From: Patescibacteria group bacterium
GTDB taxonomy: Bacteria; Patescibacteriota; Minisyncoccia; Minisyncoccales; JAHCRE01
Assembly (NCBI GenBank): GCA_020148055.1
Contig: JAHCRF010000002.1
Coordinates: 28,138-92,137 of the forward strand
Length of the DNA: 64,000 nucleotides
Reading direction: 5' to 3'
The translations under genes were made by a program, and so were the position numbers. Every line of letters starts with the position of its first letter. The stretch's first letter is position 1. The notes under the pieces were generated by a model. That model searched no databases. It saw nothing but the letters and a program-made list of their open reading frames with translations, and had not been told where the DNA came from. Below are positions 9,353 through 63,464 of this stretch, piece by piece.

Positions 9353-10114
9353 TCAAGATTTAACTCTACTGACACTTCTGAGGATTTTAATAAACTCTCG
9401 TGGATTCAAAGAAGCCCCTCCAACTAGAAGTCCCTGGAAATTAGCTTCCCTTACATAATCTGTAGCATTTTTAGAATTCACGCTACCCCCATAAATTATC
9501 CTGAGATTTTCAGCGATACCACGTGAATATTTTTTGACTATCATTTTTCTAATGAGCAAACCCATTTTTTGAGCTTCTTCCACATTGCAAGGTTTTCCAG
9601 TTCCAATCGCCCAGACAGGTTCATAGGCGATTGTAATTTTTTTGATTTCCTTTTTTGAAATTTTTGGGAGGCCTTTTTCAATCTGAGATTTTAAAATACT
9701 CTGGGTCTGACCTTTTTCTCGTTCCTCTTTGGTCTCCCCAATACAAAAAATTGGATTTAATTTAACTGATATCGCAGCTTTTATTTTTCTATTTATTATT
9801 TCATCGGTCTCACCAAAATATCTTCTCCTCTCAGAATGACCTAAGATTGCATATTTGCAGCCAAGATTTAAGAGCTGTTTTGGCGAAACTTCACCAGTAA
9901 ATGGTCCTGCTTCCTTCCAAAAACAGTTCTGTCCGCCTAGTTTGATACTTGATACTTGATACTGGACACTTGATAAATAGGTAAATGGCGGGCAAATTAC
10001 TACCTCAACATTTCTTATTTTTTTTATTCCTCTTTTGGCCGAGTTAAAAAGCCGCTTAGCTTCAGCTGAACTTTGAGGATTCATCTTCCAGTTTGCGACA
10101 ATTAATGATTTCAT
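9353..10114 (-). CDS. tpiA: triosephosphate isomerase
   Basis: IVANWKMN, AILGHSERR, IAYEPVWAIGTGK, IIYGGSV. Confidence 0.92.
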   Translation of the reverse strand: MKSLIVANWKMNPQSSAEAKRLFNSAKRGIKKIRNVEVVICPPFTYLSSVQYQVSSIKLGGQNCFWKEAGPFTGEVSPKQLLNLGCKYAILGHSERRRYFGETDEIINRKIKAAISVKLNPIFCIGETKEEREKGQTQSILKSQIEKGLPKISKKEIKKITIAYEPVWAIGTGKPCNVEEAQKMGLLIRKMIVKKYSRGIAENLRIIYGGSVNSKNATDYVREANFQGLLVGGASLNPREFIKILRSVSRVKS

Positions 10115-18977: not shown

Positions 18978-18982
18978 AAAAA

Positions 18983-24863: not shown

Positions 24864-24885
24864 CTTAAAAGAACACAAAAAAACT

Positions 24886-24959: not shown

Positions 24960-24962
24960 TTT

Positions 24963-27655: not shown

Positions 27656-28135
27656 TTAAAAAACTTTTGAAAGGTAATATTTCTGCTTTTTTCCCATCTC
27701 TTTTGCTTTTTCTTCAGAAATTTCATGGTCGTATCCTAAAAGATGCAAAATTCCGTGGATTAAACAGGTGGCTAATTCTTTCTTAAAAGTTGATTCAAAT
27801 CTTTTAGCATTTTTTTTCACCTCTCTTAAACAAATAACTATTTCGCCTAATCCTCTAAGAGATTTTGGAATTTGGAATTTGGACTCCAACCCACCCGCCA
27901 CCCTCCCGCTTCCGCGGGCCCCATTTGGAATTTTGTTTTCGCTGAAGGCAAGCACATCGGTCACCCGATTTTTCCCCCGATATCTCTTATTCAACTTTCT
28001 CATTCTTCCTTGGCCAATCAAGGCAATAGATAATCCTGATTTTTCTTTTCCTTCACCCTTTAAAACTTTTTGAGCGAGTTTTTTAAAAGAATTTTCATCA
28101 ACCAGATTAGCAGTTAAATTATTAATTTCAATCAT
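27656..28135 (-). CDS. ybeY: rRNA maturation endoribonuclease YbeY
   Basis: TDVLAF...GEIVIC...HGILHLLGYDH (HxxxHxxxxxH zinc site). Confidence 0.9.
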   Translation of the reverse strand: MIEINNLTANLVDENSFKKLAQKVLKGEGKEKSGLSIALIGQGRMRKLNKRYRGKNRVTDVLAFSENKIPNGARGSGRVAGGLESKFQIPKSLRGLGEIVICLREVKKNAKRFESTFKKELATCLIHGILHLLGYDHEISEEKAKEMGKKQKYYLSKVF

Positions 28136-29415: not shown

Positions 29416-29506
29416 AATGTCAAATGTCAAAGCTCAAATGTCAAAAATCGTTTCGGATTTTGGATTTTGACATTAATTTGAAATTTGGATTTTGTCATTT
29501 GGATTT
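29416..29506. repeat. period-7 repeat hairpin filling the hisS / HIT spacer
   Basis: aatgtca/aatgtca/aagctca/aatgtca/aaaatcg versus tttcgga/ttttgga/ttttgac/attaatt/tgaaatt/tggattt/tgtcatt/tggattt. Confidence 0.55.
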
Positions 29507-30805: not shown

Positions 30806-31362
30806 GGAGTTTCATAATTGGGTTCCTCAATTAAAGCTAAAGCTGTAATTGGCCAAGCCCTGAAGAATACCCGGCCAATAATATTTTCCCTAGACAATGG
30901 TCCCCAGCTCCTGGAATCAGCTGAAAGTCGCCGGTTATCTCCTAAGACAAAAAATCCATTTTCGGCCAAGGTGATCCGGAGATTGCCGGGAGTCTTTAAA
31001 GACTCTAGAAGATAGCTGGATTCATCTAATATTTGAGTTTTATCATCTTTAGTTATTGTTACTTCACCGCCCTTTATCTCCACCGTTTCCCCAGGCAAAC
31101 CAATAATTCTTTTAATGAAGCGCTGGGAAGGGTTTTGAGGGTATTTAAAAACTACCACCTCTCCTCTTTCAGGTTCTCTAAACCGGTAAGAAATTTCATC
31201 AATAATTAAATAATCGCTGTTTTGAAAAGTAGGTTCCATTGATTGACCTTTAACTAAAAAAGGTTGAAACAAAAAATAGCGAATTGGAACAACTATCACT
31301 AAGGCCAGGAGAATAATTTTAAATATCTCCCAGATGAATATGAAAAAATTCTTCAATTTCAT
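30802..31362 (-). CDS. lepB: signal peptidase I
   Basis: VKGQSMEPTF (catalytic Ser), IKRIIGLPGE (Lys box), VLGDNRRLSADSR. Confidence 0.9.
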   Translation of the reverse strand: MKLKNFFIFIWEIFKIILLALVIVVPIRYFLFQPFLVKGQSMEPTFQNSDYLIIDEISYRFREPERGEVVVFKYPQNPSQRFIKRIIGLPGETVEIKGGEVTITKDDKTQILDESSYLLESLKTPGNLRITLAENGFFVLGDNRRLSADSRSWGPLSRENIIGRVFFRAWPITALALIEEPNYETP

Positions 31363-31416
31363 ATTTCTAATTATAGCAAAATTTTTTAGTTTTACAAGAT
31401 TAAACTATAATTAAAT

Positions 31417-31992
31417 ATGATACTTATTATCGGTCTTGGCAATCCCGGGGAAGAATTTAAGAAAACCCGACATAATCTTGGTTTTCGAGTTGTTAATCAA
31501 TTCGTGAAAGAAAAGAAATTCTTGAAATTTAAATTTTCAAAAAAATTCAATTCTTTAATTTCTGAAGGATTTTTAGATAAGAAAAAAACAGCTTTAGCTA
31601 AACCTCAAACTTTTATGAATGAATCAGGAAAAGCAGTAAAAAAATTGTTTACTGTTTACTGTTCACTATTGACTGATTTGTGGGTGATTCATGATGATGT
31701 TGACTTGCTTTTAGGAAAAATAAAAATTGTCAAAAATCGTGGAGCAGCTGGCCACAAAGGAGTTAAATCGATAATTAACGAACTAGGGACAAAAAACTTT
31801 GTGAGATTTAGAGTTGGAATTAAACCACAGAGAACAGAGAACAGAAAACAGAAAACAGAAAAGTTTGTTCTTCAAAAATTTACAAAAGAAGAAGAAAAAA
31901 TTATAAAGAAAGTTATTAAAAAAGGCTGTCTGGCAATTAAGATAGCGATAACCGAAGGAATTGAAAAAGCAATGAATCGGTTTAATAAATAA
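31417..31992 (+). CDS. pth: peptidyl-tRNA hydrolase
   Basis: LIIGLGNPGEEFKKTRHNLGF...PQTFMNESG...VIHDDVDL...GAAGHKGVKS. Confidence 0.93.
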   Translation: MILIIGLGNPGEEFKKTRHNLGFRVVNQFVKEKKFLKFKFSKKFNSLISEGFLDKKKTALAKPQTFMNESGKAVKKLFTVYCSLLTDLWVIHDDVDLLLGKIKIVKNRGAAGHKGVKSIINELGTKNFVRFRVGIKPQRTENRKQKTEKFVLQKFTKEEEKIIKKVIKKGCLAIKIAITEGIEKAMNRFNK

Positions 31993-32060
31993 AAAATCGA
32001 GTAAGATTTTCTTTTACTCGACAGAAAATGGGGAAAGAGAACAAATAAAACTTTATATCC

Positions 32061-32305
32061 AATCCCGCCCTCCGGTCTATCTGCGAGCCCCGTAATGAAA
32101 ATACATTAGTATTTTACCACGAGCTTCACCCTTTAGTAAAAATTTACTACGGGCGAGCGCTATAATTAAAGGAAGATTACTTCCTAACCGTAGCTAGGGC
32201 TCGATAAGGTTTTCAGGAGGGATAACCCTATTCTTTTCATTTATTAAAACTTCAAAGAAATTTTAATAAGCGGAGCCACTCGCAGATAGGCTGGAAGGTG
32301 GAATC
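32061..32305. ncRNA. candidate structured RNA (or MITE-like inverted-repeat element), family unknown
   Basis: 32061-32087 pairs with 32279-32305 (22 Watson-Crick, 3 G-U on the plus strand, 2 C-A). Internal hairpins include TTATTAAAA-10 nt-TTTTAATAA, GGAAG-atta-CTTCC, AGGG-ataa-CCCT and AAAATAC-atta-GTATTTT. By eye it is G+C-richer than its surroundings. Confidence 0.4.
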
Positions 32306-32382
32306 TTATTCAATTTATATTATAAAAAATAAAAGTTAATTTGTCAAGCCCCCTTCTGCCGGTTTCATTGGTGGGGGTTAAG

Positions 32383-34335
32383 ATGATAAAAGAAAAAAAT
32401 CTAAATCGAGTTTTAATTGTTAGTATAATCCCCTATTTTTTAGAAAAGGGAAGTTTTTGGTTTGAAGAAAATTTTGAAAAAATTTTACAAATAAGAAAAG
32501 TTCAAAGCTGGTGGCAAGATAATACTTTAATTCCAGAAGAAAATCAAATTTTTAATTTTTCTCAATTTTTAAGAAAATTAGATGAATTAGGTTATGAAAA
32601 AGTTTATAAAGTCGGGGGTATTGGTGAATTTTCTCAAAGAGGAGGAATCATTGAGGTCTTTCCAATAAATTTGAATTTTCCTTTAAGATTTGAATTTTTA
32701 GGAAATAAAATTTTAGAAATCGAGAGATTAAAAATTGAAGTTAAAAATGAGAAGGAGGTAAAAGAAAGATTAAAGAAAAAATTAAAATATCAAAAAATTT
32801 ATTCTCAGTTAGATCATTTAAAAACAGGGGATTTTTTGGTCCACTTAGATCACGGAATTGGAATTTACAATCAGCAATTAACAATTAATAATCAACAATA
32901 TCACCAACTCGAATACGCGGAAGGTGACAGACTATATGTCCCAGTAGGATTGGAGAGAAAATTATCAAGATACATAGGCTTTACTCAGCCAAAAATTTCT
33001 AGATTAGGCAGTCCTCTTTGGCAGAGAACAAAGAAAAAAATTAAGGAAGAAGCTGAAAAACTGGCTAAAGAACTTTTAGAGATCGCAACCATTAGAGAAA
33101 TTGCCACCCGCCCCCCTTATTTGCCTTCTAATGAAATTGATTTTCAATTGGCATCGGGCTTTCAATATACCGAAACTCCAGACCAAATCCAAGTAATTGA
33201 AGAAATAGAAAAAGATTTAGAAAAAAATCGACCAATCGATAGATTGATTTGTGGTGACGTTGGTTTTGGAAAAACTGAAATTGCTTTAAGAACAATGATA
33301 AGAGTGGTGAACTCAGGCTATCAGGCAGTGATGATTTGCCCGACGACAATCTTAGCCAATCAACATTTCCAAAATTTTAAAGAAAGGTTAAAAAATCTCC
33401 CAGTGAAAATCAATTTACTTTCAAGATTACAATTGAAAAGAGAACAAAAGGAAATAATCAAAAAATTAAGAGAAGGAAAAATTGACATTATAATTGGCAC
33501 TCACCGAATTTTATCAAAAGATGTAGCATTTAAAAATTTAGGGATCTTAATTATTGATGACGAGCAAAGGTTTGGAGTCAGACAAAAAGAGAAATTGAGA
33601 AAGATACGTTCATCTCTTGATGTTCTTTCACTTTCTGCCACTCCAATCCCCAGAACCTTATATTTAGCCCTATCTTCTTTAAAGAAAATTTCTTTAATCC
33701 AAACTCCACCAGTAGGCCGATTACCGGTTAAAACTTTTATTTTACCCTGGTCAGAAAAAGTTATTAAAGAGGCAATTGAAAACGAAATTTCAAGAGGAGG
33801 TCAGATTTATTATTTACACAATAGAATTGAAACAATTGGGGTAGTCAAAAATCTTTTGGAAAATTTAGTTCCCGGGGCAAGAATTGGCATCGCCCATGGT
33901 AGGTTAAGGGAAAAAGAACTGATAAAAGTAATGACTAAATTTCAAAATAAAATTATTAATGTTTTAGTTGCTACCACTATAATTGAAAATGGTCTTGATT
34001 TTCCTAATGTTAATACCTTAATTGTTGCTGATGGAACGAGATTAGGTTTAGCTGAGGCATATCAAATAAGAGGAAGAGTTGGTAGGTCTCATATCAAGGC
34101 TTTTGCCTATTTTCTCTATGGCAGAAATCTTTCAGAGAAAGCAAAAATGAGATTAAAAGCCCTAAAGGAAGCTGAAGCCCTGGGTTCCGGTTATAGAATT
34201 GCCTTAAAAGATTTGGAAATTCGAGGAGCTGGAAATATTTTGGGAAGGGAACAATCTGGAAATATAAATCAGGTGGGATTAAATTTATATTGCCAAATGT
34301 TATCTGAAGCTATCGAAAAATTAAAACCGAAATAA
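32383..34335 (+). CDS. mfd: transcription-repair coupling factor, short form (650 aa; lacks N-terminal UvrB-homology module and C-terminal domain)
   Basis: RNAP-interaction/CarD-like GDFLVHLDHGIGIY, helicase motifs GDVGFGKTE, DDEQRFG, SATPIPRTL, QIRGRVGR. ATG 32383 is preferred over TTG 32341 (purine-rich GGTGGGGG 6 nt upstream). Confidence 0.85.
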   Translation: MIKEKNLNRVLIVSIIPYFLEKGSFWFEENFEKILQIRKVQSWWQDNTLIPEENQIFNFSQFLRKLDELGYEKVYKVGGIGEFSQRGGIIEVFPINLNFPLRFEFLGNKILEIERLKIEVKNEKEVKERLKKKLKYQKIYSQLDHLKTGDFLVHLDHGIGIYNQQLTINNQQYHQLEYAEGDRLYVPVGLERKLSRYIGFTQPKISRLGSPLWQRTKKKIKEEAEKLAKELLEIATIREIATRPPYLPSNEIDFQLASGFQYTETPDQIQVIEEIEKDLEKNRPIDRLICGDVGFGKTEIALRTMIRVVNSGYQAVMICPTTILANQHFQNFKERLKNLPVKINLLSRLQLKREQKEIIKKLREGKIDIIIGTHRILSKDVAFKNLGILIIDDEQRFGVRQKEKLRKIRSSLDVLSLSATPIPRTLYLALSSLKKISLIQTPPVGRLPVKTFILPWSEKVIKEAIENEISRGGQIYYLHNRIETIGVVKNLLENLVPGARIGIAHGRLREKELIKVMTKFQNKIINVLVATTIIENGLDFPNVNTLIVADGTRLGLAEAYQIRGRVGRSHIKAFAYFLYGRNLSEKAKMRLKALKEAEALGSGYRIALKDLEIRGAGNILGREQSGNINQVGLNLYCQMLSEAIEKLKPK

Positions 34336-34391
34336 AAAAGAGCCAAGTTTCAAGATTTGTAAACTTTAAATTTAATGATAGACTTGTTCTA

Positions 34392-35261
34392 ATGGAGGAA
34401 ATAAAAAAAATTTCAATTGAGGATAACAATTATCCAAAACTTTTAAAGAAGATTAAAAATCCACCAAAAATTCTTTATTATTTAGGTGAGATGAAAGCTG
34501 AAGAACCATGTTTTGCAATTGTTGGCACTAGAAGATTTTCTCCTTATGGAAAAAGAATTGCTTTAGAAATTGCTGGAGACTTAGCCGAAGCCGGACTAAC
34601 TATTGTTTCAGGTTTAGCTCCTGGAATTGATACCTTTGTTCACCAGGCAACAATTGAAGAGGAGAAAAGAACAATTGCTATTTTGGGCACTGGGCTTGAT
34701 GAAAAAAGTATTTATCCTCAATCTAACTTAAAACTAGCTAAAAAAATTTTGGAATTAGGAGGTTGTCTAATTTCTGAATACCCCCCGGGAACTCGGGGAA
34801 CCCAATTTACTTTCCCTCAAAGAAATAGAATAATTTCAGGAATTTCTTTGGGCGTATTAGTAGTTGAAGCAAAAGAGAGAAGTGGGGCCTTAATTACTGC
34901 TAATTGGGCAAAGACACAGAATCGGAAGGTTTTTGCCATTCCTGGCTCAATTCATTCTTCAAATTCAAAGGGCTGTCATCTCCTGATTAAAAAAGGAGCT
35001 AAATTGGTAGAAAATGCTAACAACATCATAAAAGAACTAAATCTCCCTCATTTGAAGCGGAAGTTTAAACAGGAATTTGAGGGAGAAAATATTGAGGAAA
35101 ATTTAATTTTAGAGGCCCTAAAAGAAGACGCCTTGTATATTGACAAAATTATTGAGAAAACAAAACTTGAAGCTTCAACAGTGGCGAGCACCCTTGCAAT
35201 AATGGAAATAAAAGGTACAGTAAGAAACTTAGGAGGTAATAATTATGCGTTGGCGCGCTAA
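34392..35261 (+). CDS. dprA: DNA processing protein DprA
   Basis: AIVGTRRFSPYG, SGLAPGIDTFVHQA, FPQRNRIISGISLGVLVVEAKERSGALITA, VFAIPGS. Confidence 0.9.
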   Translation: MEEIKKISIEDNNYPKLLKKIKNPPKILYYLGEMKAEEPCFAIVGTRRFSPYGKRIALEIAGDLAEAGLTIVSGLAPGIDTFVHQATIEEEKRTIAILGTGLDEKSIYPQSNLKLAKKILELGGCLISEYPPGTRGTQFTFPQRNRIISGISLGVLVVEAKERSGALITANWAKTQNRKVFAIPGSIHSSNSKGCHLLIKKGAKLVENANNIIKELNLPHLKRKFKQEFEGENIEENLILEALKEDALYIDKIIEKTKLEASTVASTLAIMEIKGTVRNLGGNNYALAR

Positions 35262-35280
35262 AATCTGTTAAATATTAAAT

Positions 35281-37344
35281 ATGAACTTAATTTTAGTAGA
35301 AAGTCCTACAAAATCTAAAACTCTAAAAAAATTTTTAGGCAAAGATTATCAAATTGCCGCAACTTTTGGGCATATTCGCGATTTACCAGAAAAAAAATTC
35401 GGAGTAGATATTAAAAATGATTTTAAGCCAAAGTATATCATTGTCTCTAAATCTAAAAAGATAATTCAATTCTTAAAAAAACTTACTGAAAAATCAAAAT
35501 TAACAATTTTAGCTACTGATAGTGACAGAGAAGGAGAGGCTATTGCCTGGCACTTAACTCAGGCTTTGAATTTGGACGGGAAAAATCCTTATCAAAGAAT
35601 TGTCTTCCATGAAATTACCAAATCGGCAATTAAGGAAGCTTTAGAAAATCCAAGAAAAATTGATATGAACTTAGTTGGTGCCCAACAGGCCAGAAGGATT
35701 TTAGATAGAATTGTTGGTTATAGATTATCTCCTTTTTTATGGAAAAAAGTAGCCAGAGGATTGTCAGCGGGAAGAGTCCAATCAGTGGTAGTAAGGTTGG
35801 TAGTTGAAAGAGAAAGAGAAATTAAAAACTTTGTTCCTCAGGAATACTGGAAAATTACTGCCATGCTAAAAAAACAGAACGAGAACATTTCTCGCTCTGG
35901 TGAATTTGAGGCGGTTTTAATTAAAAAAGATGGAAAAATTATTCCGAAATTAGGAATTAAAACACAAAAAGAAGCAGATAAAATTTTAAAAGATTTAAAA
36001 GGAGCCAAATACAAAGTAATCAACGTTGAGAAAAAAGAAATAAAGCGAAATCCTCTCCCTCCTTTTACTACCAGCACCCTTCAGCAAGAAGCCTGGAAAA
36101 GATTTCACTGGCCAGCCAAATTAACAATGAGAGTCGCTCAGAATCTTTATGAAAAAGGACATATCACCTATCATAGAACCGATTCTTTAAATCTTTCTGA
36201 TCAATCTTTATTTGCAGCTAAAAAATTTATCATTAAGAATTATGGTAAAGAATATTGGGCTGGTTTTTTAAGAAAATATAAAGCCAAAGGAAAAGTCCAG
36301 GAGGCTCACGAGGCCATAAGACCTACCTATCCTAGCAAAATCCTCGAGAAACTAAAATTGGATGAGAACAGTTCCCGGCTCTATGACTTAATCTGGCGAA
36401 GATTCATTGGCTGCCAGATGGCCCAAGCTATTTTTGATTCAACAACAGTTGATGTATTAACGACAAACGACAAGCGACAAGTGACAAGTTATACTTTTCG
36501 GGCCACGGGGCAAATTTTAAAATTCGATGGATTCCTAAAGGTCTATCCTATTAAATTTGAGGAAAAAGAATTGCCACCACTTGAAATTGATGAAATTTTA
36601 GAACTTATCAAATTAATTCCTTCTCAGCATTTTACCCAGCCTCCGTCAAGATACACTGAGGCCACTTTAATTAAAGCCCTAGAAAAAAATGGAATTGGCC
36701 GGCCCTCAACTTATGCTCCAATATTATCTAAAATTCAAGGAAGAAATTATGTTGAAAAAGATGAAAAAAAACGTTTCAAACCAGCTGAAATCGGAACAGT
36801 GGTTAATGATCTTTTGGTAAATCATTTCCCAAAAATTGTTGATGTCAAATTTACAGCCGGGATGGAAGAAAATTTAGACAAAATTGCCCAGGGAAAAGAA
36901 AAATGGACCAAGATTTTAGGGAGATTTTATGAACCTTTTGAAGAAAATCTAAAACAAAAAGATAAAGAAATCTCAAAAAAGGACTTAATTGAAAAAACTG
37001 AAAAAGTCTGTCCCAGGTGTGGTTCGCTGCTTTTAATTAGGCTTGGAAAATTTGGAAGATTTTATGCCTGCCCAAAATTCCCTAAATGCAAATATACTGA
37101 ACCTCTTGAAGAGAAAACTCTGGGAATAAAATGTCCGAAATGTAAAAAAGGTGAATTGGTTGAAAAAAGAACTAAAAAAGGAAAAATTTTTTATGGCTGC
37201 TCAAATTGGCCGGAATGTGATTTTGCCTTATGGGATAGACCGACTGGCGAGTTTTGTCCAAAATGTAAATCGCTTTTAGTCAAAACAAAAAGAGGGCAAA
37301 TAAAATGCTCGAAGAAAGAATGTGATTTTAAAATTGACAGATGA
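35281..37344 (+). CDS. topA: DNA topoisomerase I with C-terminal zinc ribbons
   Basis: LVESPTKSKTL (Toprim), ATDSDREGEAI, ITYHRTDS (catalytic Tyr), three CxxC..CxxC ribbons at the C-terminus. Confidence 0.95.
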   Translation: MNLILVESPTKSKTLKKFLGKDYQIAATFGHIRDLPEKKFGVDIKNDFKPKYIIVSKSKKIIQFLKKLTEKSKLTILATDSDREGEAIAWHLTQALNLDGKNPYQRIVFHEITKSAIKEALENPRKIDMNLVGAQQARRILDRIVGYRLSPFLWKKVARGLSAGRVQSVVVRLVVEREREIKNFVPQEYWKITAMLKKQNENISRSGEFEAVLIKKDGKIIPKLGIKTQKEADKILKDLKGAKYKVINVEKKEIKRNPLPPFTTSTLQQEAWKRFHWPAKLTMRVAQNLYEKGHITYHRTDSLNLSDQSLFAAKKFIIKNYGKEYWAGFLRKYKAKGKVQEAHEAIRPTYPSKILEKLKLDENSSRLYDLIWRRFIGCQMAQAIFDSTTVDVLTTNDKRQVTSYTFRATGQILKFDGFLKVYPIKFEEKELPPLEIDEILELIKLIPSQHFTQPPSRYTEATLIKALEKNGIGRPSTYAPILSKIQGRNYVEKDEKKRFKPAEIGTVVNDLLVNHFPKIVDVKFTAGMEENLDKIAQGKEKWTKILGRFYEPFEENLKQKDKEISKKDLIEKTEKVCPRCGSLLLIRLGKFGRFYACPKFPKCKYTEPLEEKTLGIKCPKCKKGELVEKRTKKGKIFYGCSNWPECDFALWDRPTGEFCPKCKSLLVKTKRGQIKCSKKECDFKIDR

Positions 37345-37369
37345 ATAATTTTTGGTAAGCTAAAATTAA

Positions 37370-37457
37370 GCCGCGGTGCTGGAACTGGAAGACAGGATGG
37401 ACTCAAAATCCATTGTCCCAAAAGGACGTGTGGGTTCAATTCCCACCCGCGGCACCA
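37370..37457 (+). tRNA. tRNA-Leu (anticodon CAA), long variable arm, genomically encoded CCA
   Basis: Acceptor GCCGCGG/CCGCGGC, anticodon stem-loop ATGGA-CTCAAAA-TCCAT, variable arm TGTCCCAAAAGGACG, T arm GTGGG-TTCAATT-CCCAC, discriminator A + CCA. Confidence 0.9.
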
Positions 37458-37461
37458 ATAC

Positions 37462-37484
37462 AAAAAGCCCTTAAAGGGCTTTTT
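37462..37484. terminator. bidirectional intrinsic terminator after tRNA-Leu
   Basis: AAAAAGCCC-ttaaa-GGGCTTTTT (A-tract / stem / T-tract symmetric). Confidence 0.75.
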
Positions 37485-37489
37485 GTAAT

Positions 37490-37519
37490 ATCACAAATAA
37501 TACCGAGAAGGGTTCTCGG
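37490..37519 (-). terminator. candidate terminator after the BadF-type kinase gene
   Basis: Minus strand CCGAGAA-ccc-TTCTCGG followed by UAUUAUUUGUG; 8 nt after the stop codon. Confidence 0.4.
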
Positions 37520-37526
37520 ACTAATT

Positions 37527-38504
37527 TTATTTTAGATTTTCAATAGCTAGTTTTATTGCTCCTATTACTGGTTCAGCTTTAGGTTTTAAAAACTTAACTT
37601 TTGAAGCAAATTTTTTGATTTCTTTCTTTGCTGTATTTAAAAGAATTTTTGATTTAAACATTTTACCAACCAAGACTAAAGAAAATTTTTGATTTTGAAA
37701 ATTTAATTTTTTAATTACTGAAATCGCAGCTAAAGCTAATTCTTTCCCGGCTTTTTCCATAATTGAAATAGCGATTTTATCTCCCGTTTTAGAGGCCTTA
37801 TCAATAATTCTTGAAATTAAAGAGGTCCGCAAGATTGAATCTTTCGAATAAGCTTTTTTTAATAAATCTTCTTTTCGTTTTAACTTCCATTCTTTAAAAA
37901 TTAATTTTGTGATTTTAGTTTTAGGACTTCTTCCATCTAATTCTTTAAAAATTGCCTGAAAACCCTTTAGGCCGGCCCAAAATCCAGAACCCTCATCATC
38001 TAACCAACCCCAACCACCAACTTTTGCCTCTTTTTTGCCACGCCAGCCATGGGCTACACAACCGGTGCCTGAAATTAAAACAACGCCTTCTTTCTCATCA
38101 GTTCCTGCTCTAAAAGCTATAATCTGATCTGAACCAATTTCTATTTTTCCTTTTAAAATTTTAGAAATTCCCTTTTCCTTCAGAATCTCTTTTTTAATTT
38201 TGTCTTTTTTAAATTTATATTCTTCCTCAACTGCTGCCAAAGCTATGAAAGCTGATAAAATTTTTCCTTTCTTTGGTAAAACTTTTTTGATTGCTAAAGC
38301 AATATTTTGAGCTGCTTCTTTTATTCCAACATTCCTCAAATTTGAAGGGCCAGTCTTTGCCAATCTCAGAATTTTTCCTTTTAAATTGCCTAAAGCAGCA
38401 ATTGTCTTTGTCCCTCCCCCATCAACTCCGATTACATACCCGCCTGCCATCGGCCTGAGCCGAAGGCTCTGGGGGGCAAGTTGCTTCTTATTTTCTTTTT
38501 TCAT
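37527..38504 (-). CDS. BadF/BadG/BcrA/BcrD-type ATPase (N-acetylglucosamine kinase-like)
   Basis: YVIGVDGGGTKT, LISGTGCVAHG, GGWGWLDDEGSGFW. The true start may be Met19 (38450): the first 18 codons cover a GAGCC-gaa-GGCTC hairpin and lie 15 nt from a terminator. Confidence 0.8.
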   Translation of the reverse strand: MKKENKKQLAPQSLRLRPMAGGYVIGVDGGGTKTIAALGNLKGKILRLAKTGPSNLRNVGIKEAAQNIALAIKKVLPKKGKILSAFIALAAVEEEYKFKKDKIKKEILKEKGISKILKGKIEIGSDQIIAFRAGTDEKEGVVLISGTGCVAHGWRGKKEAKVGGWGWLDDEGSGFWAGLKGFQAIFKELDGRSPKTKITKLIFKEWKLKRKEDLLKKAYSKDSILRTSLISRIIDKASKTGDKIAISIMEKAGKELALAAISVIKKLNFQNQKFSLVLVGKMFKSKILLNTAKKEIKKFASKVKFLKPKAEPVIGAIKLAIENLK

Positions 38505-43523: not shown

Positions 43524-45212
43524 TTATTTATTTTTCACGAATAAACAAGGTCTTTTACTAACAATGACCGAAACTTCCTTTTTCTTCAGGAAGTCCTTTA
43601 TTGTTTTGATAAATTCTTTCTGATTGATTGGGTCAATAACTTTAAAATATTTAACTCCACAGGCCTGAACAATATCCTCAATTTTTATTGCCCGGGTTTT
43701 CTCACCCATTCCAGTCTTTCCAACCCCCGGATGAGGCTGATGTCCAGTCATAGCAGTTGTTCGATTATCTAAAATTATAATTAAAGGATTAGATTTATTA
43801 ACAACTGCATTAATCAAGGCTGGGATTCCGGCATGAAAGAAAGAGGAGTCGCCAATAAAAGTGATTAATTTTTGGCCACTGGCTTTTTTAATTCCATGGG
43901 CGATTCCGATTGAAGAACCCATACACGACAAATAATCTTGCATCTCAATTGGTGGGAGACGGAAAATCATATAACAACCAATACCACCTCCAAAAATTAC
44001 TTTTTTAGGATCAACCACTTTATTCACGGCTGAAAGGACTAACCAATAAGGGCAACCAGGGCAAAGTTGAGGAGGTCTTTTCTGGAAAACTGAATCAGGT
44101 GTGGAAATTTTATATTTTGAGCGATAGCGAAAAATATCCCCAGAGGCATACTTTCTCCCGACAAATCTCGCCAAGGCAAAAGTAACATCTTCAGGATGTA
44201 ATTCACCAATCTCAGATAACAAGTTTTTACCGAAAACCTGAAGCTTTGGATTAATATCTTTGGCAAAAGCTTTTATTTCTTTTTCCAAATACCCTTCTAA
44301 TTCCTCAATAATTAAAACTTTTTTAAGATTTTTTATAAATTTTTTTATTTTTTTCTCAGGCAAAGGATGAAAAAATGCAAGTTTCAAAACCGGCAACTTT
44401 AAATTAAGCTCCTTTTGAGCCTCCATAATATATTGATAGGAAATCCCTGAGGTTACAATACCTCCCTCTTGTCTCTTGTTGCTTGTTGCTAGTTGCTCAA
44501 TTAAATTTATCTCACTTTTTTCCGAAAATTCTTTAATTTTTTCAATTTTTTCTAAAAGCTCTCTTTTCATTTCCAAAACCCGGGGAGGCATAGTTGAGAA
44601 TTTCTCTGGATTTTTAATAAACTTTCCCAATTTTCTTTTAATTTTTGGGAGTTTATCAAGCTTAACCGGACACTTCTGATGAGAAACCCTGGTGGTCACT
44701 CTAATCATTATTGGTATTTTAAATTTTTTAGAAAGTTTGAAGGCCAATTTTGTAAAATCTTTACATTCCTGAGGATTTGATGGTTCTAAAATTGGAATGT
44801 GGGCTAAATAGGCAAAGGCTCTTGTGTTCTCTTCGGATTGGGCTGAGCTCCAACAAGAGGGATCATCGGCAACTAAAATAACCATTTCTCCCTCAACACC
44901 AATATAACAGAGAGGCATTAAAGCATCAGAGGCCACATTCAATCCAAAATGCTTCATAGCTACCAAAGATTTTAGACCGGAAAAACTAGCCCCAGCTCCT
45001 GCTTCCAAAGCCACTTTTTCATTGGTTGAAAATTCAAAATAAACACCGGCAGCCTTGGCAATTTTTGAAAAAACATTCCCAATTTCTGAAGCTGGTGTAC
45101 CTGGATAAGTAGAGACAAAATTGACCCCTGACTCTAAAGCTCCTCTGATAATTGCTTCATTACCAAGAAGGATTATTTTTTTACCTGGTCTGTTTAAAAG
45201 AATTTCTCTCAT
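43524..45212 (-). CDS. iorA: indolepyruvate/2-oxoacid:ferredoxin oxidoreductase, alpha subunit (no C-terminal ferredoxin domain)
   Basis: GNEAIIRGALESGVNFVSTYPGTPASEI, CPGCPYW, TPP-binding GDSSFFHAG...LDNRTTAMTGHQ. Confidence 0.75.
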   Translation of the reverse strand: MREILLNRPGKKIILLGNEAIIRGALESGVNFVSTYPGTPASEIGNVFSKIAKAAGVYFEFSTNEKVALEAGAGASFSGLKSLVAMKHFGLNVASDALMPLCYIGVEGEMVILVADDPSCWSSAQSEENTRAFAYLAHIPILEPSNPQECKDFTKLAFKLSKKFKIPIMIRVTTRVSHQKCPVKLDKLPKIKRKLGKFIKNPEKFSTMPPRVLEMKRELLEKIEKIKEFSEKSEINLIEQLATSNKRQEGGIVTSGISYQYIMEAQKELNLKLPVLKLAFFHPLPEKKIKKFIKNLKKVLIIEELEGYLEKEIKAFAKDINPKLQVFGKNLLSEIGELHPEDVTFALARFVGRKYASGDIFRYRSKYKISTPDSVFQKRPPQLCPGCPYWLVLSAVNKVVDPKKVIFGGGIGCYMIFRLPPIEMQDYLSCMGSSIGIAHGIKKASGQKLITFIGDSSFFHAGIPALINAVVNKSNPLIIILDNRTTAMTGHQPHPGVGKTGMGEKTRAIKIEDIVQACGVKYFKVIDPINQKEFIKTIKDFLKKKEVSVIVSKRPCLFVKNK

Positions 45213-48235: not shown

Positions 48236-50725
48236 TTACACAACTATATTAATTAATTTCCCGGGAACAAAAATGACTTTTTTAATTTCTTTTCCTTTTA
48301 TCCATTTTTTGATTTTTTCACAAGAAAGAGCTAATTTTTTGGCTTTTTTTTCAGAAATACCAGCTTCAACTTTTGCTCTATCTCTAACTTTTCCATTCAC
48401 CTGGATAACCAGAGTAATCATTTCTTCTTTTACCAATTTCGGATCATATTTTGGCCAGGGCTGATTGTGAATTGAATTTTTAGCTTTGAATTCTGAACTT
48501 TCAATAAAATATTTTTGCCAAATTTCCTCAGTTAGATGAGGCGCAAAAGGAGCTAAAAGTAAAAGTAATGTCTTTATATGCTGTGGGCTGTAGTCCCTAG
48601 ACTGTAGATTATTTACTAAAATCATTAGTTGAGAAATAGCTGTATTGAATTTAAAGTTTTCAATGTCTTCGGTAACTTTCTTTATTGTCTGATGAATTAA
48701 TTTCTCGAGTCTTACGTCTTGTCGCTTGTCGCTTGTCCCTTGTCGCTCAACCTTTTCTTGAAGTCTCCAGGCTTTCTCTAAAAATCTCCTCGTCCCGATT
48801 ATTCCTTTGATATTCCAATTTATTGCCTCATCAAAAGGACCCATAAACATCTCATATAATCTAAAAGCATCGGCTCCATATTTTTCAATTATTTCATCAG
48901 GTAAAATCACATTTCCTCTTGATTTTGACATTTTTTGACCATCTGGAGCCAAAATCAAACCCAAAGTTTTAAGTTTTAAAAATGGTTCTTTAAACTTTAT
49001 TAAGCCAGCATCATATAAAACTTTTGTCCAGAATCTAGCATAAAGTAAGTGTAAAACTGCATGCTCAGCCCCCCCAACATATAAATCTACCGGCAGCCAA
49101 TAATTTATCTTCTTTCTATTCCAGCTAAATTCTTTATTCTTATGTAAGAGATAAGCAATGAAGTACCAACAAGATCCTGCCCACTGAGGCATTGTATTTG
49201 TTTCTCTCTTAGCTGAACCCCCACATTTTGGGCAAATAGTTTGTACCCATTTTTTAATTGCTGCTAAAGGAGATTCTCCAGTTCCAGTAGGCAGATATTT
49301 TTTAATTCTTGGAAGCTTCAAAGGCAGATCTTTCTTTCTTAAGGGAACTACCCCACATTTTTGACAATGAACTATTGGGACGGGTTCTCCCCAATATCTC
49401 TGTCTTGAAAAAATCCAGTCTCTCAGTTTAAAATATACGGCTTTTTTGGCTAAATTTTTCTTAGTCAACCATTCCCCTATTCTTTCTCTAGCTTCCCTTG
49501 ATTTCATTCCAGTAAAACGATCAGAATTAATTAAAATTCCTTCTTTCTCATAAGCCCGGTCAAATCTTCCATCAGACACTATTAAAGGAGCTTCTTTCTT
49601 TGATTCTTTTTTTTCATAATAGGGCTTAATGACTTCGATTACTGGCAAATTATATTTTCTGGCAAAATCAAAGTCCCTTTGGTCGTGAGCAGGGACAGCC
49701 ATAATAGCCCCTGTTCCATAATGAATCAAAACATAATCAGCCACGAAAATAGGAATAGCTCGGCCATTTACCGGATTAATTGCTTTAATTCCCCTAATTT
49801 CTATCCCAGTTTTCTCTTTTACCTCGCTTATTCTTTCTCTCTCAGTTTTTTTCTTTGACTCTTTAATATATCTTTCGACAGATTTGAAATTTGAGATTTG
49901 AGATTTAAGCTTTGAAATAATTTGATGCTCTGGTGCTAATACCAAATAAGTGCAACCAAAAAGAGTATCTGTCCTTGTAGTAAAAACTGGAATTTTATTT
50001 TTGATTTTTGAGATTTGAGATTTGAGATTAAATACTATTTCCCATCCCTCTGATTTTCCAATCCAATTTCTCTGCATTTCCTTTATTTGCTCTGGCCAAT
50101 CAAGTAAATCCAAATCTTTCAATAATCTATTAGCATAGGCAGTGATCTTTAAAACCCACTGTCTTAGATCTTTTTTTGTTACCTCAGTGCCACACCTTTC
50201 ACATTTCCCTTCAATCACTTCCTCGTTAGCTAATCCTGTTTTACAAGAAGGACACCAATTAATCGGCAAGGTTGCTTTGTAAGCCAAACCCATTTTATAA
50301 AGTAAAAGGAAGATGAATTGAGTCCATTTGTAATATTCAGGATCGGTTGTGTTTATTTCTCTTGACCAATCATAGCTTAAACCAATCATCTGAAGTTGTT
50401 TTTTCATTCGCTTTATATTTCTCCTGGTAATAATTTCTGGATGAATTCCGGTTTTTATGGCATAGTTTTCAGTTGGCAGGCCAAAAGCATCCCAACCCAT
50501 TGGATGCAAAAGATTAAAACCCTTCCTTCTCATAAAATGGGCGAAAACATCAGTAGCAATATAACCTCTTGGATGACCAACATGCAAACCTTCGGCTGAT
50601 GGATAGGGAAACATATCCAAAATATAAAATTTTGGCTTTTTCGAAAAATCTTTTGCCTTGAAAATCCCGAGTTCTTCCCAAATCTTTTGCCACCTCTTTT
50701 CAATTTTGCACGGATTATATTCCAT
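48236..50725 (-). CDS. leuS: leucine--tRNA ligase
   Basis: PYPSAEGLHVGH (HIGH), TTRTDTLFG (editing domain), KMSKSRGN. Confidence 0.95.
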   Translation of the reverse strand: MEYNPCKIEKRWQKIWEELGIFKAKDFSKKPKFYILDMFPYPSAEGLHVGHPRGYIATDVFAHFMRRKGFNLLHPMGWDAFGLPTENYAIKTGIHPEIITRRNIKRMKKQLQMIGLSYDWSREINTTDPEYYKWTQFIFLLLYKMGLAYKATLPINWCPSCKTGLANEEVIEGKCERCGTEVTKKDLRQWVLKITAYANRLLKDLDLLDWPEQIKEMQRNWIGKSEGWEIVFNLKSQISKIKNKIPVFTTRTDTLFGCTYLVLAPEHQIISKLKSQISNFKSVERYIKESKKKTERERISEVKEKTGIEIRGIKAINPVNGRAIPIFVADYVLIHYGTGAIMAVPAHDQRDFDFARKYNLPVIEVIKPYYEKKESKKEAPLIVSDGRFDRAYEKEGILINSDRFTGMKSREARERIGEWLTKKNLAKKAVYFKLRDWIFSRQRYWGEPVPIVHCQKCGVVPLRKKDLPLKLPRIKKYLPTGTGESPLAAIKKWVQTICPKCGGSAKRETNTMPQWAGSCWYFIAYLLHKNKEFSWNRKKINYWLPVDLYVGGAEHAVLHLLYARFWTKVLYDAGLIKFKEPFLKLKTLGLILAPDGQKMSKSRGNVILPDEIIEKYGADAFRLYEMFMGPFDEAINWNIKGIIGTRRFLEKAWRLQEKVERQGTSDKRQDVRLEKLIHQTIKKVTEDIENFKFNTAISQLMILVNNLQSRDYSPQHIKTLLLLLAPFAPHLTEEIWQKYFIESSEFKAKNSIHNQPWPKYDPKLVKEEMITLVIQVNGKVRDRAKVEAGISEKKAKKLALSCEKIKKWIKGKEIKKVIFVPGKLINIVV

Positions 50726-54300: not shown

Positions 54301-55134
54301 TTATTCTAATTTAAATAATTCTTTTGCATTTTTTGTGGTAATCTCAGCCAATTCTTCAAAACTTATGTTTTTTATTTTAGCAATTTCCTGGGCAATATAT
54401 TTAACATATAAAGGTTCATTTCTCTGATTCTCAAATTGTGGTGGAGGTAAATAGGGACAATCGGTTTCAATTAAAATTTTTTCCAGTGGAGTGTTTTTGA
54501 TTATTTTACCAAGATCTAATTTAAAAATTATTCCATTAAAACCTAAGTAGAGTCCCGTCTCCAAAAATTTTTGAGCCTGATCCCAGTTTCCGGTAAAACA
54601 ATGAATCACCCCTCTAATTTTTGATTTTTGAGATTTGATATTTGATTTCAAGATTTCGATAAGATCTTGATGGGCCATCCGACAATGAAAAATTATTGGC
54701 AAATTCAATTCTTGAGCTAATTTTATTTCCTCTAAAAATAAATTTTTTTGTTTTTCTTTAAAAAGTTCTAATTTTTTTTTCGTTTTTGGCTTCCAATAAT
54801 AATCCAAGCCAATTTCACCAATAGCCACTACCTTTTCGGACTGGGCTAATCTTTTGTATTCTTCAAAATCAAATTCTTTTTCAAAATGACTTCCTTCTTT
54901 TTCATCAACTTTTATTTTTACTAATCCTGTATCTAAATTTATTGGATGAAGACCAACAGTAGCATAAACTCCTTTTTGACATTTTTTTGCAATTTCAACT
55001 GCTCTTTTTGAAGTTTCAAAATTTGTTCCAATATTTATCATCCAGATATCATTTTCTAAAGACCGACGAATGATTTCGTCGGCATCTTCTTGAAAGGCAT
55101 TAAAATTTAAATGGGCATGGGTATCAATGAACAT
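54301..55134 (-). CDS. tatD: TatD-family metal-dependent hydrolase
   Basis: MFIDTHAHLN, AIGEIGLDY, IIFHCR, IHCFTG, LIETDCPYL. Confidence 0.9.
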   Translation of the reverse strand: MFIDTHAHLNFNAFQEDADEIIRRSLENDIWMINIGTNFETSKRAVEIAKKCQKGVYATVGLHPINLDTGLVKIKVDEKEGSHFEKEFDFEEYKRLAQSEKVVAIGEIGLDYYWKPKTKKKLELFKEKQKNLFLEEIKLAQELNLPIIFHCRMAHQDLIEILKSNIKSQKSKIRGVIHCFTGNWDQAQKFLETGLYLGFNGIIFKLDLGKIIKNTPLEKILIETDCPYLPPPQFENQRNEPLYVKYIAQEIAKIKNISFEELAEITTKNAKELFKLE

Positions 55135-61415: not shown

Positions 61416-63377
61416 TTATTGATTAACAGCAATTATGACAAGATTTCTTTGTCCAAGGACTGCTCTTGCTGAACCATCTCCTGTTCTATCAGAACCCTGA
61501 ATACGTATAGTATAGGTTCCCGGGCTAACTGCATAAGTACACATTGTCTGAAAATTATCTGCCCAGCGACCTCCTCCACCAGCAGCAGTTGGAGATTCGT
61601 GTTGTCGGACACTTCCAGAACAGGCAGTTCCACCTACAGTTATTCTATAGTAACCCCAACTATGAGGCTCGGCGAATTGGATGAATGGAACACTATCGTC
61701 GCGGTAATTAATTTGACCTGAAGCCCATATCATTAAGAGACTATTTTGAGTAACGGTTATACTTTTCCATAAATTCGGATCATTATAATAAGTCCCGGCA
61801 CCGTCGCTTTCTGGTATATCCCAGCCGCCTGTTTCTACATCGTATGCATATGGGGGTTTAAGACTAGTTATCCCATCTATCCTTGTCCCACCTTCAAAAT
61901 CTCCTGCATAGTTTACTACTAAAACATCACTGTTATCATGTACTAATGCCCTCTGATTTGGTTTTGAACCAATACTTCTGCCATCATTAAGACCCATTTT
62001 AAAATCTGAACCATCCATATATATCCAACCACCTAACTTGACATCACTATTAACTCTTATATTACCCGCAACTTGTAGTTTTTCTCCTGGACTCTCCGTC
62101 CCGATGCCAACGTTGCCGTTATCTCCAAAAATTAAACTACCATCTGAACCTAATCTGATTCCAGCTCGGTCGCTATTTTGCATTCCGTATATTCCAAGAG
62201 TATTGGCTACATCTATGTCCGTTAAATAACTATCGTCTCCGATGATGAGATTCTGGCCTCCAGCTGCGAATATATCCATTGCTCTTATTGTGCCAGAAAC
62301 ATCTAACTTATAGGTTGGACTGATTGTTCCAATGCCAACTTTCCAGGCAGTATTATTGGGATAGAGGTTTAAACCAGATTGGGTCCAATAACCTACTCCA
62401 CCAGAAGGCCAGGTATCCCGACAATCATCTTTCATACAAAGATAATTGGCTCTGATACTATTGTTTCCCCAGGTACCATCAGATTCTAAAACTCTAATTC
62501 CTGTTGAACCTCTAAAATCAATGTAGCCATTGTTGTAATCATAAAATCCACCATCATCTGAAATCCAGATACCACCGCCTCCAGTATTCCTTCTATTGGC
62601 ATAGAGCATGTCAGCATTTGAGCCTACCATTTCATAACCATCTACTTGAAATCCATTATCAGCTCGAACCATTTTATTAACATATATATCTTTATTACCG
62701 TATGAACGAATCCAAGTAGTATCTATCATATACCATCCACCACCATAAGTCTGTGAGTACCAACCTGTATTACCATAAGTTCTGACCCAACCGCCTCCAT
62801 CATCACGAAGAGTTCCTTCAGGAGCCACAATTGCTCCATCAACTCTCAAATTACCAGCTACATGCAATTTTTGAGCAGGACTAGTCGTCCCGATGCCGAC
62901 ATTCCAGGCAGTATTATTGGGATAGAGACGATCAGGAGCTGTAAAGTCCCAATAACCTGCTGCTGCTCCACTTTGATCTACTCCACAGATAATATCACCG
63001 GAAGCATTAGCATAGAGCTTACTGGTGATTGGATCTGAACAAGCATTAAGACCTGTAACCCGAACATTTCCAACCACATGAAGCCTTTGAGCTGGAGTGG
63101 TTGTTCCGATGCCAACCTTGCCTTGAAAGAGGGCAGAATAACCCCCAGCTCCACCAGCTGGATCAACCCACCAACTATTATCATTTGAGTCATAAAATGT
63201 TGGGAAAGAAAGCGTGCCAGTTTTAGTCTGGGCACCTCCACCAACATTTAAAGGAGCTGGAACATTCCCTCCTGGTGGACCGACTGCTGGCTCAGTCCAG
63301 GCAAGAACTAAGTAGCCAACCAAAAAACTCATTATTAAAACCCCTAAGATTAGGGCGAATGATTTTAGTTTAGACAT
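61416..63377 (-). CDS. large secreted repeat protein (tail-fibre-like VGIGT repeats)
   Basis: Signal/anchor FALILGVLIMSFLVGYLVLA|WTEP. Four copies of the (G/W)(K/N)VGIGTxxPxxxLxVxGNxRV motif. Gly/Asn/Trp/Tyr-rich beta-type sequence. Confidence 0.7.
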   Translation of the reverse strand: MSKLKSFALILGVLIMSFLVGYLVLAWTEPAVGPPGGNVPAPLNVGGGAQTKTGTLSFPTFYDSNDNSWWVDPAGGAGGYSALFQGKVGIGTTTPAQRLHVVGNVRVTGLNACSDPITSKLYANASGDIICGVDQSGAAAGYWDFTAPDRLYPNNTAWNVGIGTTSPAQKLHVAGNLRVDGAIVAPEGTLRDDGGGWVRTYGNTGWYSQTYGGGWYMIDTTWIRSYGNKDIYVNKMVRADNGFQVDGYEMVGSNADMLYANRRNTGGGGIWISDDGGFYDYNNGYIDFRGSTGIRVLESDGTWGNNSIRANYLCMKDDCRDTWPSGGVGYWTQSGLNLYPNNTAWKVGIGTISPTYKLDVSGTIRAMDIFAAGGQNLIIGDDSYLTDIDVANTLGIYGMQNSDRAGIRLGSDGSLIFGDNGNVGIGTESPGEKLQVAGNIRVNSDVKLGGWIYMDGSDFKMGLNDGRSIGSKPNQRALVHDNSDVLVVNYAGDFEGGTRIDGITSLKPPYAYDVETGGWDIPESDGAGTYYNDPNLWKSITVTQNSLLMIWASGQINYRDDSVPFIQFAEPHSWGYYRITVGGTACSGSVRQHESPTAAGGGGRWADNFQTMCTYAVSPGTYTIRIQGSDRTGDGSARAVLGQRNLVIIAVNQ

Positions 63378-63380
63378 ATT

Positions 63381-63464
63381 ATTAGATGTTAGATATTGGA
63401 TATTAGATGTTAGATGTAAAAGATAATATCAAACACCCAAGTATCAAATATCTAAGATTATTTG
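63381..63464. repeat. period-7 repeat hairpin upstream of the large secreted protein gene
   Basis: attagat/gttagat/attggat/attagat/gttagat versus ataatat/caaacac/ccaagta/tcaaata/tctaaga (gttagatattggatat vs cttagatatttgatac, 13 of 16). Confidence 0.55.

Follow-up and report, generated by a model that had tools for sequence, protein, structure and literature searches.

How can essential genes carry tandem repeats whose unit length is not a multiple of three? One would expect repeats of this kind to be purged from such genes, yet those described here are frequent and near-perfect, and they recur at the same loops of the proteins throughout a large uncultured radiation. The question is raised by a 64,000-nucleotide stretch of DNA from a Patescibacteria group bacterium (contig JAHCRF010000002.1 of assembly GCA_020148055.1, positions 28,138 to 92,137; hereafter the window), in which the leuS gene (48236..50725, minus strand, 829 amino acids) hosts three arrays of heptanucleotide units. 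We found 12 such arrays in frame within genes of the window, among them all eleven that had been listed in an initial annotation made from the sequence alone. The arrays comprise 3-5 units (~21-40 nt) and lie in structurally tolerant, poorly conserved segments of the encoded proteins. As set out below, they turn over by unit sequence at constant length, and they probably arise by templated copying in place.

The window has a GC content of ~33% overall (range about 31-39%), and open reading frames (ORFs) of at least 100 amino acids, the majority of them on the minus strand, cover ~89% of it. We scanned it for tandem periodicity with scores of +1 for a match and -2 for a mismatch, using cut-offs of at least 12 and at least 10. 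At the higher cut-off the window holds 15 period-7 arrays, whereas the other periods from 3 to 15 gave 0-1, except for the multiple 14, which gave nine. Trinucleotide-block shuffles of the window produced ~0 period-7 arrays at this cut-off, and in 50 kb of E. coli DNA, a control spanning leuS and ybeY, the same scan returned zero arrays, whatever the period. Tandem Repeats Finder also calls the listed arrays as period 7. At the lower cut-off, 25 arrays were found in the window: 12 fully within ORFs, three at ORF edges and ten intergenic. Array density in the window is ~0.21/kb in coding versus at least 1.4/kb in non-coding DNA.

Period 7 is also in excess among relatives. In a set of 160 related leuS loci assembled from genome and metagenome collections (1.7 Mb in total), there were 166 period-7 arrays, whereas each of the other periods between 4 and 12 had 1-20; at least one period-7 array was present in 68 of the loci. 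Thus, the phenomenon is lineage-wide and not confined to the genome of the window. Most arrays of this wider set (144 of 186) are located inside ORFs, and 179 arrays yielded 86 distinct canonical units, which are A/T-rich.

The genes that host the in-frame arrays of the window are leuS, tatD, topA, iorA, tpiA, mfd, pth and ybeY, with profile scores at or nearly at equivalog level. Profile scores and translations confirm the gene names, in-frame positions and low-complexity peptides of the initial annotation throughout. The three leuS arrays are on the minus strand. Site 1 (49993..50031) reads (AATCTCA)x3 followed by (AAAATCA)x2 in the sense direction, encodes the peptide NLKSQISKIKNK at LeuS residues ~233-245, and overlies the beta-hairpin immediately preceding the VFTTR motif. 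Site 2 (49880..49915), which lies 116 nt downstream in identical orientation, has five sense units of the (AAATCTC) type and encodes KLKSQISNFK (residues ~271-282). Site 3 (48718..48747), with sense (CGACAAG)x4 and the peptide QGTSDKRQ (residues ~660-668), is located in a loop of the anticodon-binding domain. The forward-strand readings first given for site 2 (gatttga/aatttga/gatttga/gatttaa/gctttga, 49881-49915) and site 1 (atttttg/atttttg/agatttg/agatttg/agattaa, 49997-50031) are exact.

Four further hosts are on the minus strand: tatD (54617..54658, core 54617-54646; sense units AAATATC, AAATCTC and AAAAATC; peptide SNIKSQKSK), iorA (44466..44500; sense AGCAACT/AGCAACA/AGCAACA/AGAGACA/AGAGGGA; peptide QLATSNKRQE), tpiA (9942..9976; sense (GTATCAA)x4-5; peptide SSVQYQVSSI, in a variable segment following beta-2) and ybeY, where the array is short (27861..27883; sense (TCCAAAT)x3.3; peptide SKFQIP). 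On the plus strand are topA (36459..36489; (CGACAAG)x4.4; peptide TTNDKRQVTS), two sites in pth, A (31646..31675; (TGTTTAC)x4; peptide FTVYCSLLT) and B (31827..31862; (ACAGARA)x5; peptide QRTENRKQKTE), and a degenerate tract in mfd (32862..32908; TTTACAA/TCAGCAA/TTAACAA/TTAATAA/TCAACAA), the weakest member of the group. All eleven arrays that had been described as having 4-6 units could thus be located, but ybeY has only ~3 units, the mfd tract is degenerate, and so are the outer units in tatD. The mfd gene (32341-34335, plus strand) is short, with 664 amino acids and a TTG start; its product aligns with no more than positions 283-820 of the 907 in the Mfd profile and scores below the equivalog cut-off, and the gene appears to encode a truncated transcription-repair coupling factor. 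It belongs to a plus-strand block, pth-mfd-dprA-topA-tRNA-Leu (31417-37457). GC and AT skew change sign exactly at the flip in gene orientation (30000-38000), and skew tracks the direction of transcription within the window.

Several arrays of the window share units. The AAATCTC family is found at leuS sites 1 and 2 and in tatD; the CGACAAG family is found at leuS site 3, in topA and, roughly, in iorA, and it is in coding sense at both topA and leuS site 3. Sites 1 and 2 of leuS have 17 nt in common, and leuS site 3 and topA have 14. The 22-nt string ATTTTTGATTTTTGAGATTTGA, reported at the outset as common to leuS and tatD, is present without mismatch at 49997-50018 and at 54617-54638. The two copies are 4.6 kb apart, the string is compound, and none is expected from shuffles. 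It is absent from all 160 related loci.

Periodicity at the nucleotide level could in principle be imposed by the encoded peptide, and the initial annotation had allowed that the peptides might be ancestral sequence made periodic by codon bias alone. We therefore held each peptide fixed and drew synonymous codons from the codon usage of the window, with 5,000 resamples per array. Nine of 11 in-CDS (coding sequence) arrays beat the synonymous resamples (P <= 0.005); values for the mfd tract (P ~0.10, not significant) and for the broad tatD interval 54617-54658 (P ~0.14) were higher. Both this result and the perfect arrays of other units that relatives bear at the same sites reject codon bias as the sole source of the pattern.

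Alignment to solved structures bears out the early suggestion that the arrays sit in variable loops, with changes in length of only -2 to +7 amino acids. The difference is -2 residues for tpiA (versus 1b9b), 0 and +3 for pth sites A and B (versus 7y52), +3 for tatD (versus 1j6o) and +7 for topA (versus 4rul, the TopA of E. coli), where the array occupies a hairpin turn. Relative to LeuS of T. thermophilus, site 1 is longer by four residues and site 2 by one, and the segment at site 3 is shorter than its counterpart. The ybeY array is in a loop not alignable to solved YbeY structures. The arrays are thus replacements at near-constant length and not lineage-specific insertions, the two outcomes between which the annotation had proposed to decide by alignment.

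We surveyed the positions of arrays in 127 non-redundant Patescibacteria leuS genes, of which 48 carry a total of 97 arrays and 79 are array-free. Conservation was computed on core alignment columns, from the 79 array-free orthologues only. Insertion columns hold 17 of the 97 arrays; among the remaining 80, 94% map to the 20% of core columns with the lowest conservation. The arrays concentrate at ~7 sites, and those of the window occupy the three busiest, which span (in residues of the window LeuS) 222-255 with 27 arrays, 271-285 with 27 and 657-674 with 11. The further sites are 447-461 and 705-718 (seven arrays each), 361-386 (six) and 522-536 (five). A suspected ~1.2-kb insertion (intein or intron) in leuS of the related loci L086-L088 and L090 proved to be an artefact of joined tblastn pieces, and the ORFs end normally.

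Occupancy of a given site and identity of the unit vary among relatives. Many relatives have the same unit family as the window at leuS site 2. At site 3, the closest relatives have no array and read SIVPIKEDKE; the CGACAAG unit, which the window has at leuS site 3 and in topA, is found in these closest relatives at leuS site 1 instead. Arrays of other units occur at the tatD site in L154 and L088, and an array of a different unit occurs at the iorA site in L079. The closest relative of all, L001 (JAHCRH010000001.1, 82% LeuS identity), has zero arrays at score >=12 in its syntenic 14.5 kb, versus four in the window, and its leuS site 1 has no more than a degenerate array, built on another unit. 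Thus, array perfection changes fast between close lineages.

Site 1 of leuS shows how this turnover proceeds. The flanking codons are conserved, and of ~240 LeuS sequences 156 are in a 17-residue length class; the window belongs, with its closest clade, to a 21-residue class. Orthologue lengths have no mode at +7 or +14 residues, as would correspond to steps of three units. The five in-register heptamers at this site nevertheless vary by lineage: they are GAATTCA x4 in L083 and L085, AAATTCC x3-4 in L081 and L084, of the GAATTAT type in L082, AAATTCG x4 in L002, AAATTTC x4 in L003, degenerate and of the GCGACAA type in L001, and AATCTCA/AAAATCA in the window; arrays of different units at this site are identical in length. 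The 91 distinct sequences of the 17-residue class form a continuum from non-periodic (FKIKDSDEKI-type, median between-unit identity 0.37) to near-perfect. Thus, arrays arise in place by overwriting the resident sequence. Unit sequence turns over at fixed length, which is concerted evolution and not gain or loss of units.

The pth gene provides a second example. In L161 and L162, sites A and B bear the same array as exact direct repeats of 25 and 23 nt, 177 nt apart (3233-3256 and 3409-3433 in L161; 3144-3173 and 3317-3350 in L162). The core of the unit differs between these two loci, ACCCTA versus AAGCTA, and it does so in every unit of both arrays. A peptide of at least four residues common to sites A and B occurs in six of 120 pth orthologues, versus ~0.9 expected. 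Sites A and B therefore co-evolve, and their relative orientation is not conserved. Units were also compared between sites, a comparison confined to different sites inside leuS so that hairpin pairs would not confound it; within one leuS gene, units at different sites are more alike than units between genomes (permutation P = 0.02). The clustered, length-neutral changes typical of repeats homogenized by template switching are seen both at pth A/B in L161 and L162 and in the leuS site 1 units of L081-L085. In seven near-identical locus pairs, which cover only three arrays, all indels were outside arrays and none was of 7 nt. Look-ups of exact proteins for strain variants yielded nothing beyond the source scaffold (scaffold_36 of ENA ERZ23498930, 109,955 nt, sample SAMN13740702, to which the window is 100% identical) and an identical Logan contig of 1,236 nt.

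Arrays within genes and arrays between genes differ in their partners. Each array was compared with the 400 nt on both sides of it, with random segments as a control. An inverted partner beyond chance is absent for nine of the 11 in-CDS arrays and present for 8-9 of the ten intergenic arrays, so that the nearby complementary arrays whose existence the initial annotation had raised for coding arrays are found for the pth pair only. In the window, pth sites A and B are complementary at ~6/7 positions per unit, and they form a long-range stem in the predicted minimum-energy fold (z = -3.2), closing a 150-nt domain. The predicted fold of the leuS region is no better than that of shuffles (z = +0.7), and the leuS arrays are predicted to be unpaired.

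Partner arrays in intergenic DNA are 10-60 nt apart and make long stem-loops with about one mismatch per 7-nt unit (z -1.9 to -4.2). They are found at 3921-4023, 18172-18258, 18980-19090, 21128-21209, 24885-24961, 26170-26264, 29416-29501 and 63382-63458. The intergenic arrays belong to two dispersed unit families, GAATTAT and AGTATTN, with common strings of up to 19 nt, and the unit families of the two classes are mostly separate. The claim that the same arrays occur in both settings accordingly stands for period and architecture, but the unit families differ and inverted partners are missing in coding sequence. A search of Rfam found tRNA only, and no RNA family related to the arrays.

Several of the intergenic pairs are inside the ribosomal-protein operon (S19/L22, S17/L14 and L24/L5), and others are in the tuf-rpsJ and ftsA-tuf spacers. 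At 19027-19090, (TCATTAT)x7.3 exceeds every other array of the window in length and perfection; it overlaps at its upstream end the last codons of a 78-amino acid S17 gene (~19072-19308 in the ENA gene calls); it was counted as intergenic because this gene is below the 100-amino acid cut-off for ORFs. At the GC-richer end of the window (38-39% GC), the paired-array hairpin at 63382-63458 is directly upstream of the start codon of a 653-amino acid ORF (61416-63377, minus strand), which has no NCBIfam match and a short match to Pfam Shufflon_N (pilin-like) at residues 175-240.

The composition of in-CDS arrays is strongly strand-biased. Over all loci, their sense strand has 47% A and 8% G, versus 32% and 22% for ORFs overall. 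In the encoded peptides, K, S, N, Q, I and F are over-represented 1.35- to 2.9-fold, and A, G, D, V and W are under-represented. The bias extends to units that have no stop codon in either orientation, with A exceeding T in 40 versus 8 cases and C exceeding G in 35 versus 8.

The explanation that we favor, and consider probable though well short of certain, is that these are heptanucleotide microsatellite-like arrays, made and homogenized by short-patch templated copying and then filtered by selection for frame, absence of stop codons and hydrophilic loop peptides. A period-7-specific, lineage-wide repeat-forming process would have the coding arrays as one of its faces and the intergenic paired-array hairpins as the other. 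Polymerase would misalign or switch template, or a short gene-conversion tract would form, between copies offset by 7 nt, and likewise between nearby similar arrays, and would then return to register. Resident sequence would be overwritten and units made alike, with length unchanged. Selection would then keep an array in coding sequence only if frame and roughly the ancestral loop length were preserved, if no stop codon arose in any of the three reading phases of the 7-nt unit, and if the resulting peptide, with its period of seven residues, were benign, hydrophilic and rich in K, S, N, Q and I. Because gaining or losing one or two units would put an essential gene out of frame, copy number would be effectively frozen and turnover would proceed by unit sequence. 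The arrays would, under this model, have no dedicated function. Length-neutral homogenization of short imperfect repeats by template switching has been documented, coding DNA included (PMC7202029, PMC8604942), and heptanucleotides are the most abundant class of long simple sequence repeats (SSRs) in most prokaryotic genomes, which is attributed to interaction with the polymerase (Mrazek et al. 2007, in the summaries of PMC4679880 and PMC4692102).

Several points weigh against this explanation. We infer the mutational events, none of which was directly observed, and the model leaves the register of seven without explanation. Selection for the arrays themselves could also explain why perfect arrays occupy the same three leuS sites in proteins of 50-80% identity, and identical units at unrelated sites could be convergence on the few units that are tolerated, without any copying. 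The similarity of units within a gene is modest (P = 0.02). Finally, we read the bias of units that are stop-free in both orientations as tolerance of hydrophilic peptides, but a cause at the RNA level, or one specific to the strand, would look the same. It is conceivable, if on balance unlikely, that an active, Patescibacteria-specific process working in a fixed 7-nt register continuously rewrites tolerant DNA, loops of essential proteins among it, and keeps dispersed arrays in concert, with the arrays, their 7-residue-periodic peptides or the A/C-rich unstructured RNA perhaps being used by the cell. Such rewriting could be a property of a reduced replication and repair machinery, or of a dedicated enzyme.

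Other explanations locate the cause in the protein or in ordinary slippage. That the periodicity is a by-product of protein periodicity (a heptad-like helix or a beta-hairpin) combined with AT-rich codon bias, with no nucleotide process behind it, has some features in its favor: a 7-nt unit read through three frames yields a period of seven residues, the leuS site 1 hairpin has an F-x-I...N-S...F-x-I pattern, AAATT cores give K, F, I or N in different frames, and the pattern LKxxIxNxKxV is widely conserved at leuS site 2. However, far fewer period-7 matches appear among the resamples when the peptide is held fixed (nine of 11 arrays, P <= 0.005), within any one array the free positions of the unit change together, and they are not the same from lineage to lineage, period 7 is also in excess between genes, where no protein is encoded, and the leuS region of E. 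coli is without any array. This idea is already largely refuted, and we give it almost no weight. Slipped-strand microsatellites whose copy number changes, whether as contingency or phase switches, as hazardous hot spots or in three-unit (7-amino acid) steps, are also improbable. A slip of one unit must cause a frameshift, as the unit is not a multiple of three, the literature attributes heptamer SSRs to polymerase slippage (PMC4679880, PMC4692102), and the topA array is exactly seven residues longer than its counterpart in E. coli TopA. Nevertheless, the hosts are essential single-copy housekeeping genes with the arrays internal to them, 3-5 units are short for efficient slippage, and arrays of different units are equal in length. 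The absence of 7-nt indels from the near-identical locus pairs, with the three arrays that they cover, adds a weak argument in the same direction. The idea of slippage hot spots in essential genes, put forward in the initial annotation, is logical, but orthologue lengths lend it no support, given the conserved 17-residue class at leuS site 1 (156 of ~240) and the missing +7 and +14 modes.

Two remaining alternatives invoke a function or an agent. The arrays might be selected cis-elements acting on nucleic acid, such as A/C-rich unstructured landing pads for a single-strand-binding protein with a ~7-nt footprint (of the Csp or S1 type), modulators of translation or mRNA decay, or trans-pairing targets of the intergenic array hairpins. 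We regard this as unlikely, despite the excess of A and C on the sense strand even where stops do not fix orientation, the predicted unpaired state of the leuS arrays, the reappearance of perfect arrays at identical sites in deeply diverged relatives, the predicted long-range stem of the pth pair (z = -3.2), and the binding of heptamer repeats by CspB, one protein per heptamer, as reviewed in PMC4679880. The 179 arrays have 86 distinct canonical units and hence no motif in common; 79 of 127 leuS genes are array-free, and the closest relative has a degenerate array only; array positions coincide exactly with the least conserved protein segments; and peptide composition alone can account for the strand bias. 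Moreover, the inverted arrangement of the pth sites in the window is replaced by a direct one in relatives, which leaves no conserved RNA structure, and no Rfam family matches. Less likely again is that an active element or enzyme pasted the arrays in, be it a mobile micro-repeat, reverse transcriptase-templated addition (telomerase-, retron- or diversity-generating retroelement-like) or homing of intergenic arrays. The compound 22-mer in both leuS and tatD, 4.6 kb apart, would fit such pasting, as would the dispersed unit families of the window and the appearance of CGACAAG at leuS site 3, topA and roughly iorA there and at leuS site 1 in the closest relatives. Against it, there is no net insertion, the ancestral length being kept through an in-place continuum from non-periodic to perfect; unit diversity is so high that a single template is excluded; in-CDS and intergenic unit families are mostly different; and no reverse transcriptase or transposase was found among 19 scanned window proteins or the gene calls for 21417-41992. 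We find this account very improbable.

If templated copying followed by selection is the source of the arrays, they are a natural readout of templated multi-nucleotide mutation in the coding DNA of genome-reduced bacteria, and the process could be a hidden source of rapid loop change in otherwise very conserved proteins. The arrays also provide an empirical map of the segments that tolerate arbitrary sequence in LeuS, TopA, Pth, TpiA and the other hosts. They can mislead alignment, phylogeny and dN/dS analyses of marker genes of the candidate phyla radiation (CPR), and they are likely trouble spots for the assembly of metagenome-assembled genomes and for frameshift calls.

How do these arrays compare with repeats described elsewhere? 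Heptamer repeats known as STRR sequences were reportedly described from cyanobacteria by Mazel et al. in 1990. Like the arrays reported here, these and the GGGAATC/GGGGAYT repeats of Xanthomonas and Nostoc are 7-nt arrays, often in inverted intergenic pairs that make stem-loops, and their length and sequence differ between close relatives (PMC4692102). They differ in having few defined, G/C-rich units per genome and in being essentially intergenic, whereas our arrays have dozens of A/T-rich units and are mostly intra-ORF; with 86 A/T-rich units, and with 12 of 25 arrays in the window and 144 of 186 in the wider set inside ORFs, they do not belong to that class. Rickettsia palindromic elements are insertions of ~100-150 bp that add a peptide module, and DNA uptake sequences are copies of a single conserved motif. 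Both resemble the arrays as nucleotide repeats tolerated in frame at permissive protein sites, but neither is a tandem heptamer, and an in-frame insertion of the Rickettsia type is at odds with length differences of -2 to +7 residues and with the same length in most relatives. Contingency or phase-variable loci are likewise a poor match, given housekeeping hosts, internal tracts, conserved length and a reading frame intact in all relatives. Nor do the in-CDS arrays resemble intergenic hairpins of the repetitive extragenic palindromic type, as nine of 11 are without a partner and the leuS fold has z = +0.7, the pth pair being the exception. Targets of diversity-generating retroelements would involve a template/variable repeat pair of ~100 nt, whereas these are tandem arrays of 21-40 nt, and the 19 scanned proteins and the gene calls include no reverse transcriptase.

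The TAACTGA direct repeats of marine Beggiatoaceae are also heptamers, and there too the stop codons in the unit dictate which coding place and orientation are tolerated; but they all have one conserved unit, lie immediately before start codons and have been proposed as a regulator binding site (PMC4679880), whereas here there are many units, internal to genes. Borg tandem repeats are, similarly, fast-evolving, near-perfect and within ORFs, and encode low-complexity or disordered peptides, but their units are multiples of three and their arrays expand (PMC9879509), in contrast to a 7-nt unit at constant length. Template-switch homogenization of the quasipalindrome type produces multi-nucleotide, length-neutral changes, coding DNA included (PMC7202029, PMC8604942, PMC5941160), and would fit pth A/B and leuS site 1; it is known for inverted repeat pairs and not for tandem 7-nt registers, so its operation here is something we infer. 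The closest match is to prokaryotic heptanucleotide long SSRs in the sense of Mrazek (2007): the arrays are tandem units within the 5-11-nt range, repeated beyond chance, with period 7 over-represented. They share with these SSRs the head-to-tail 7-nt units, the period-7 excess, the diversity of units and an origin ascribed to polymerase misalignment, although the published cases are described as mainly intergenic, with a scattered spread among phyla (PMC4679880, PMC4692102). Our search of the literature turned up nothing on heptamer repeats in Patescibacteria/CPR, on essential proteins with the same loops repeatedly occupied, or on unit turnover at fixed length. Thus, an excess of heptamer repeats is known in bacteria, and its occurrence in protein loops of Patescibacteria, with units that turn over at fixed length, is a new aspect of it.

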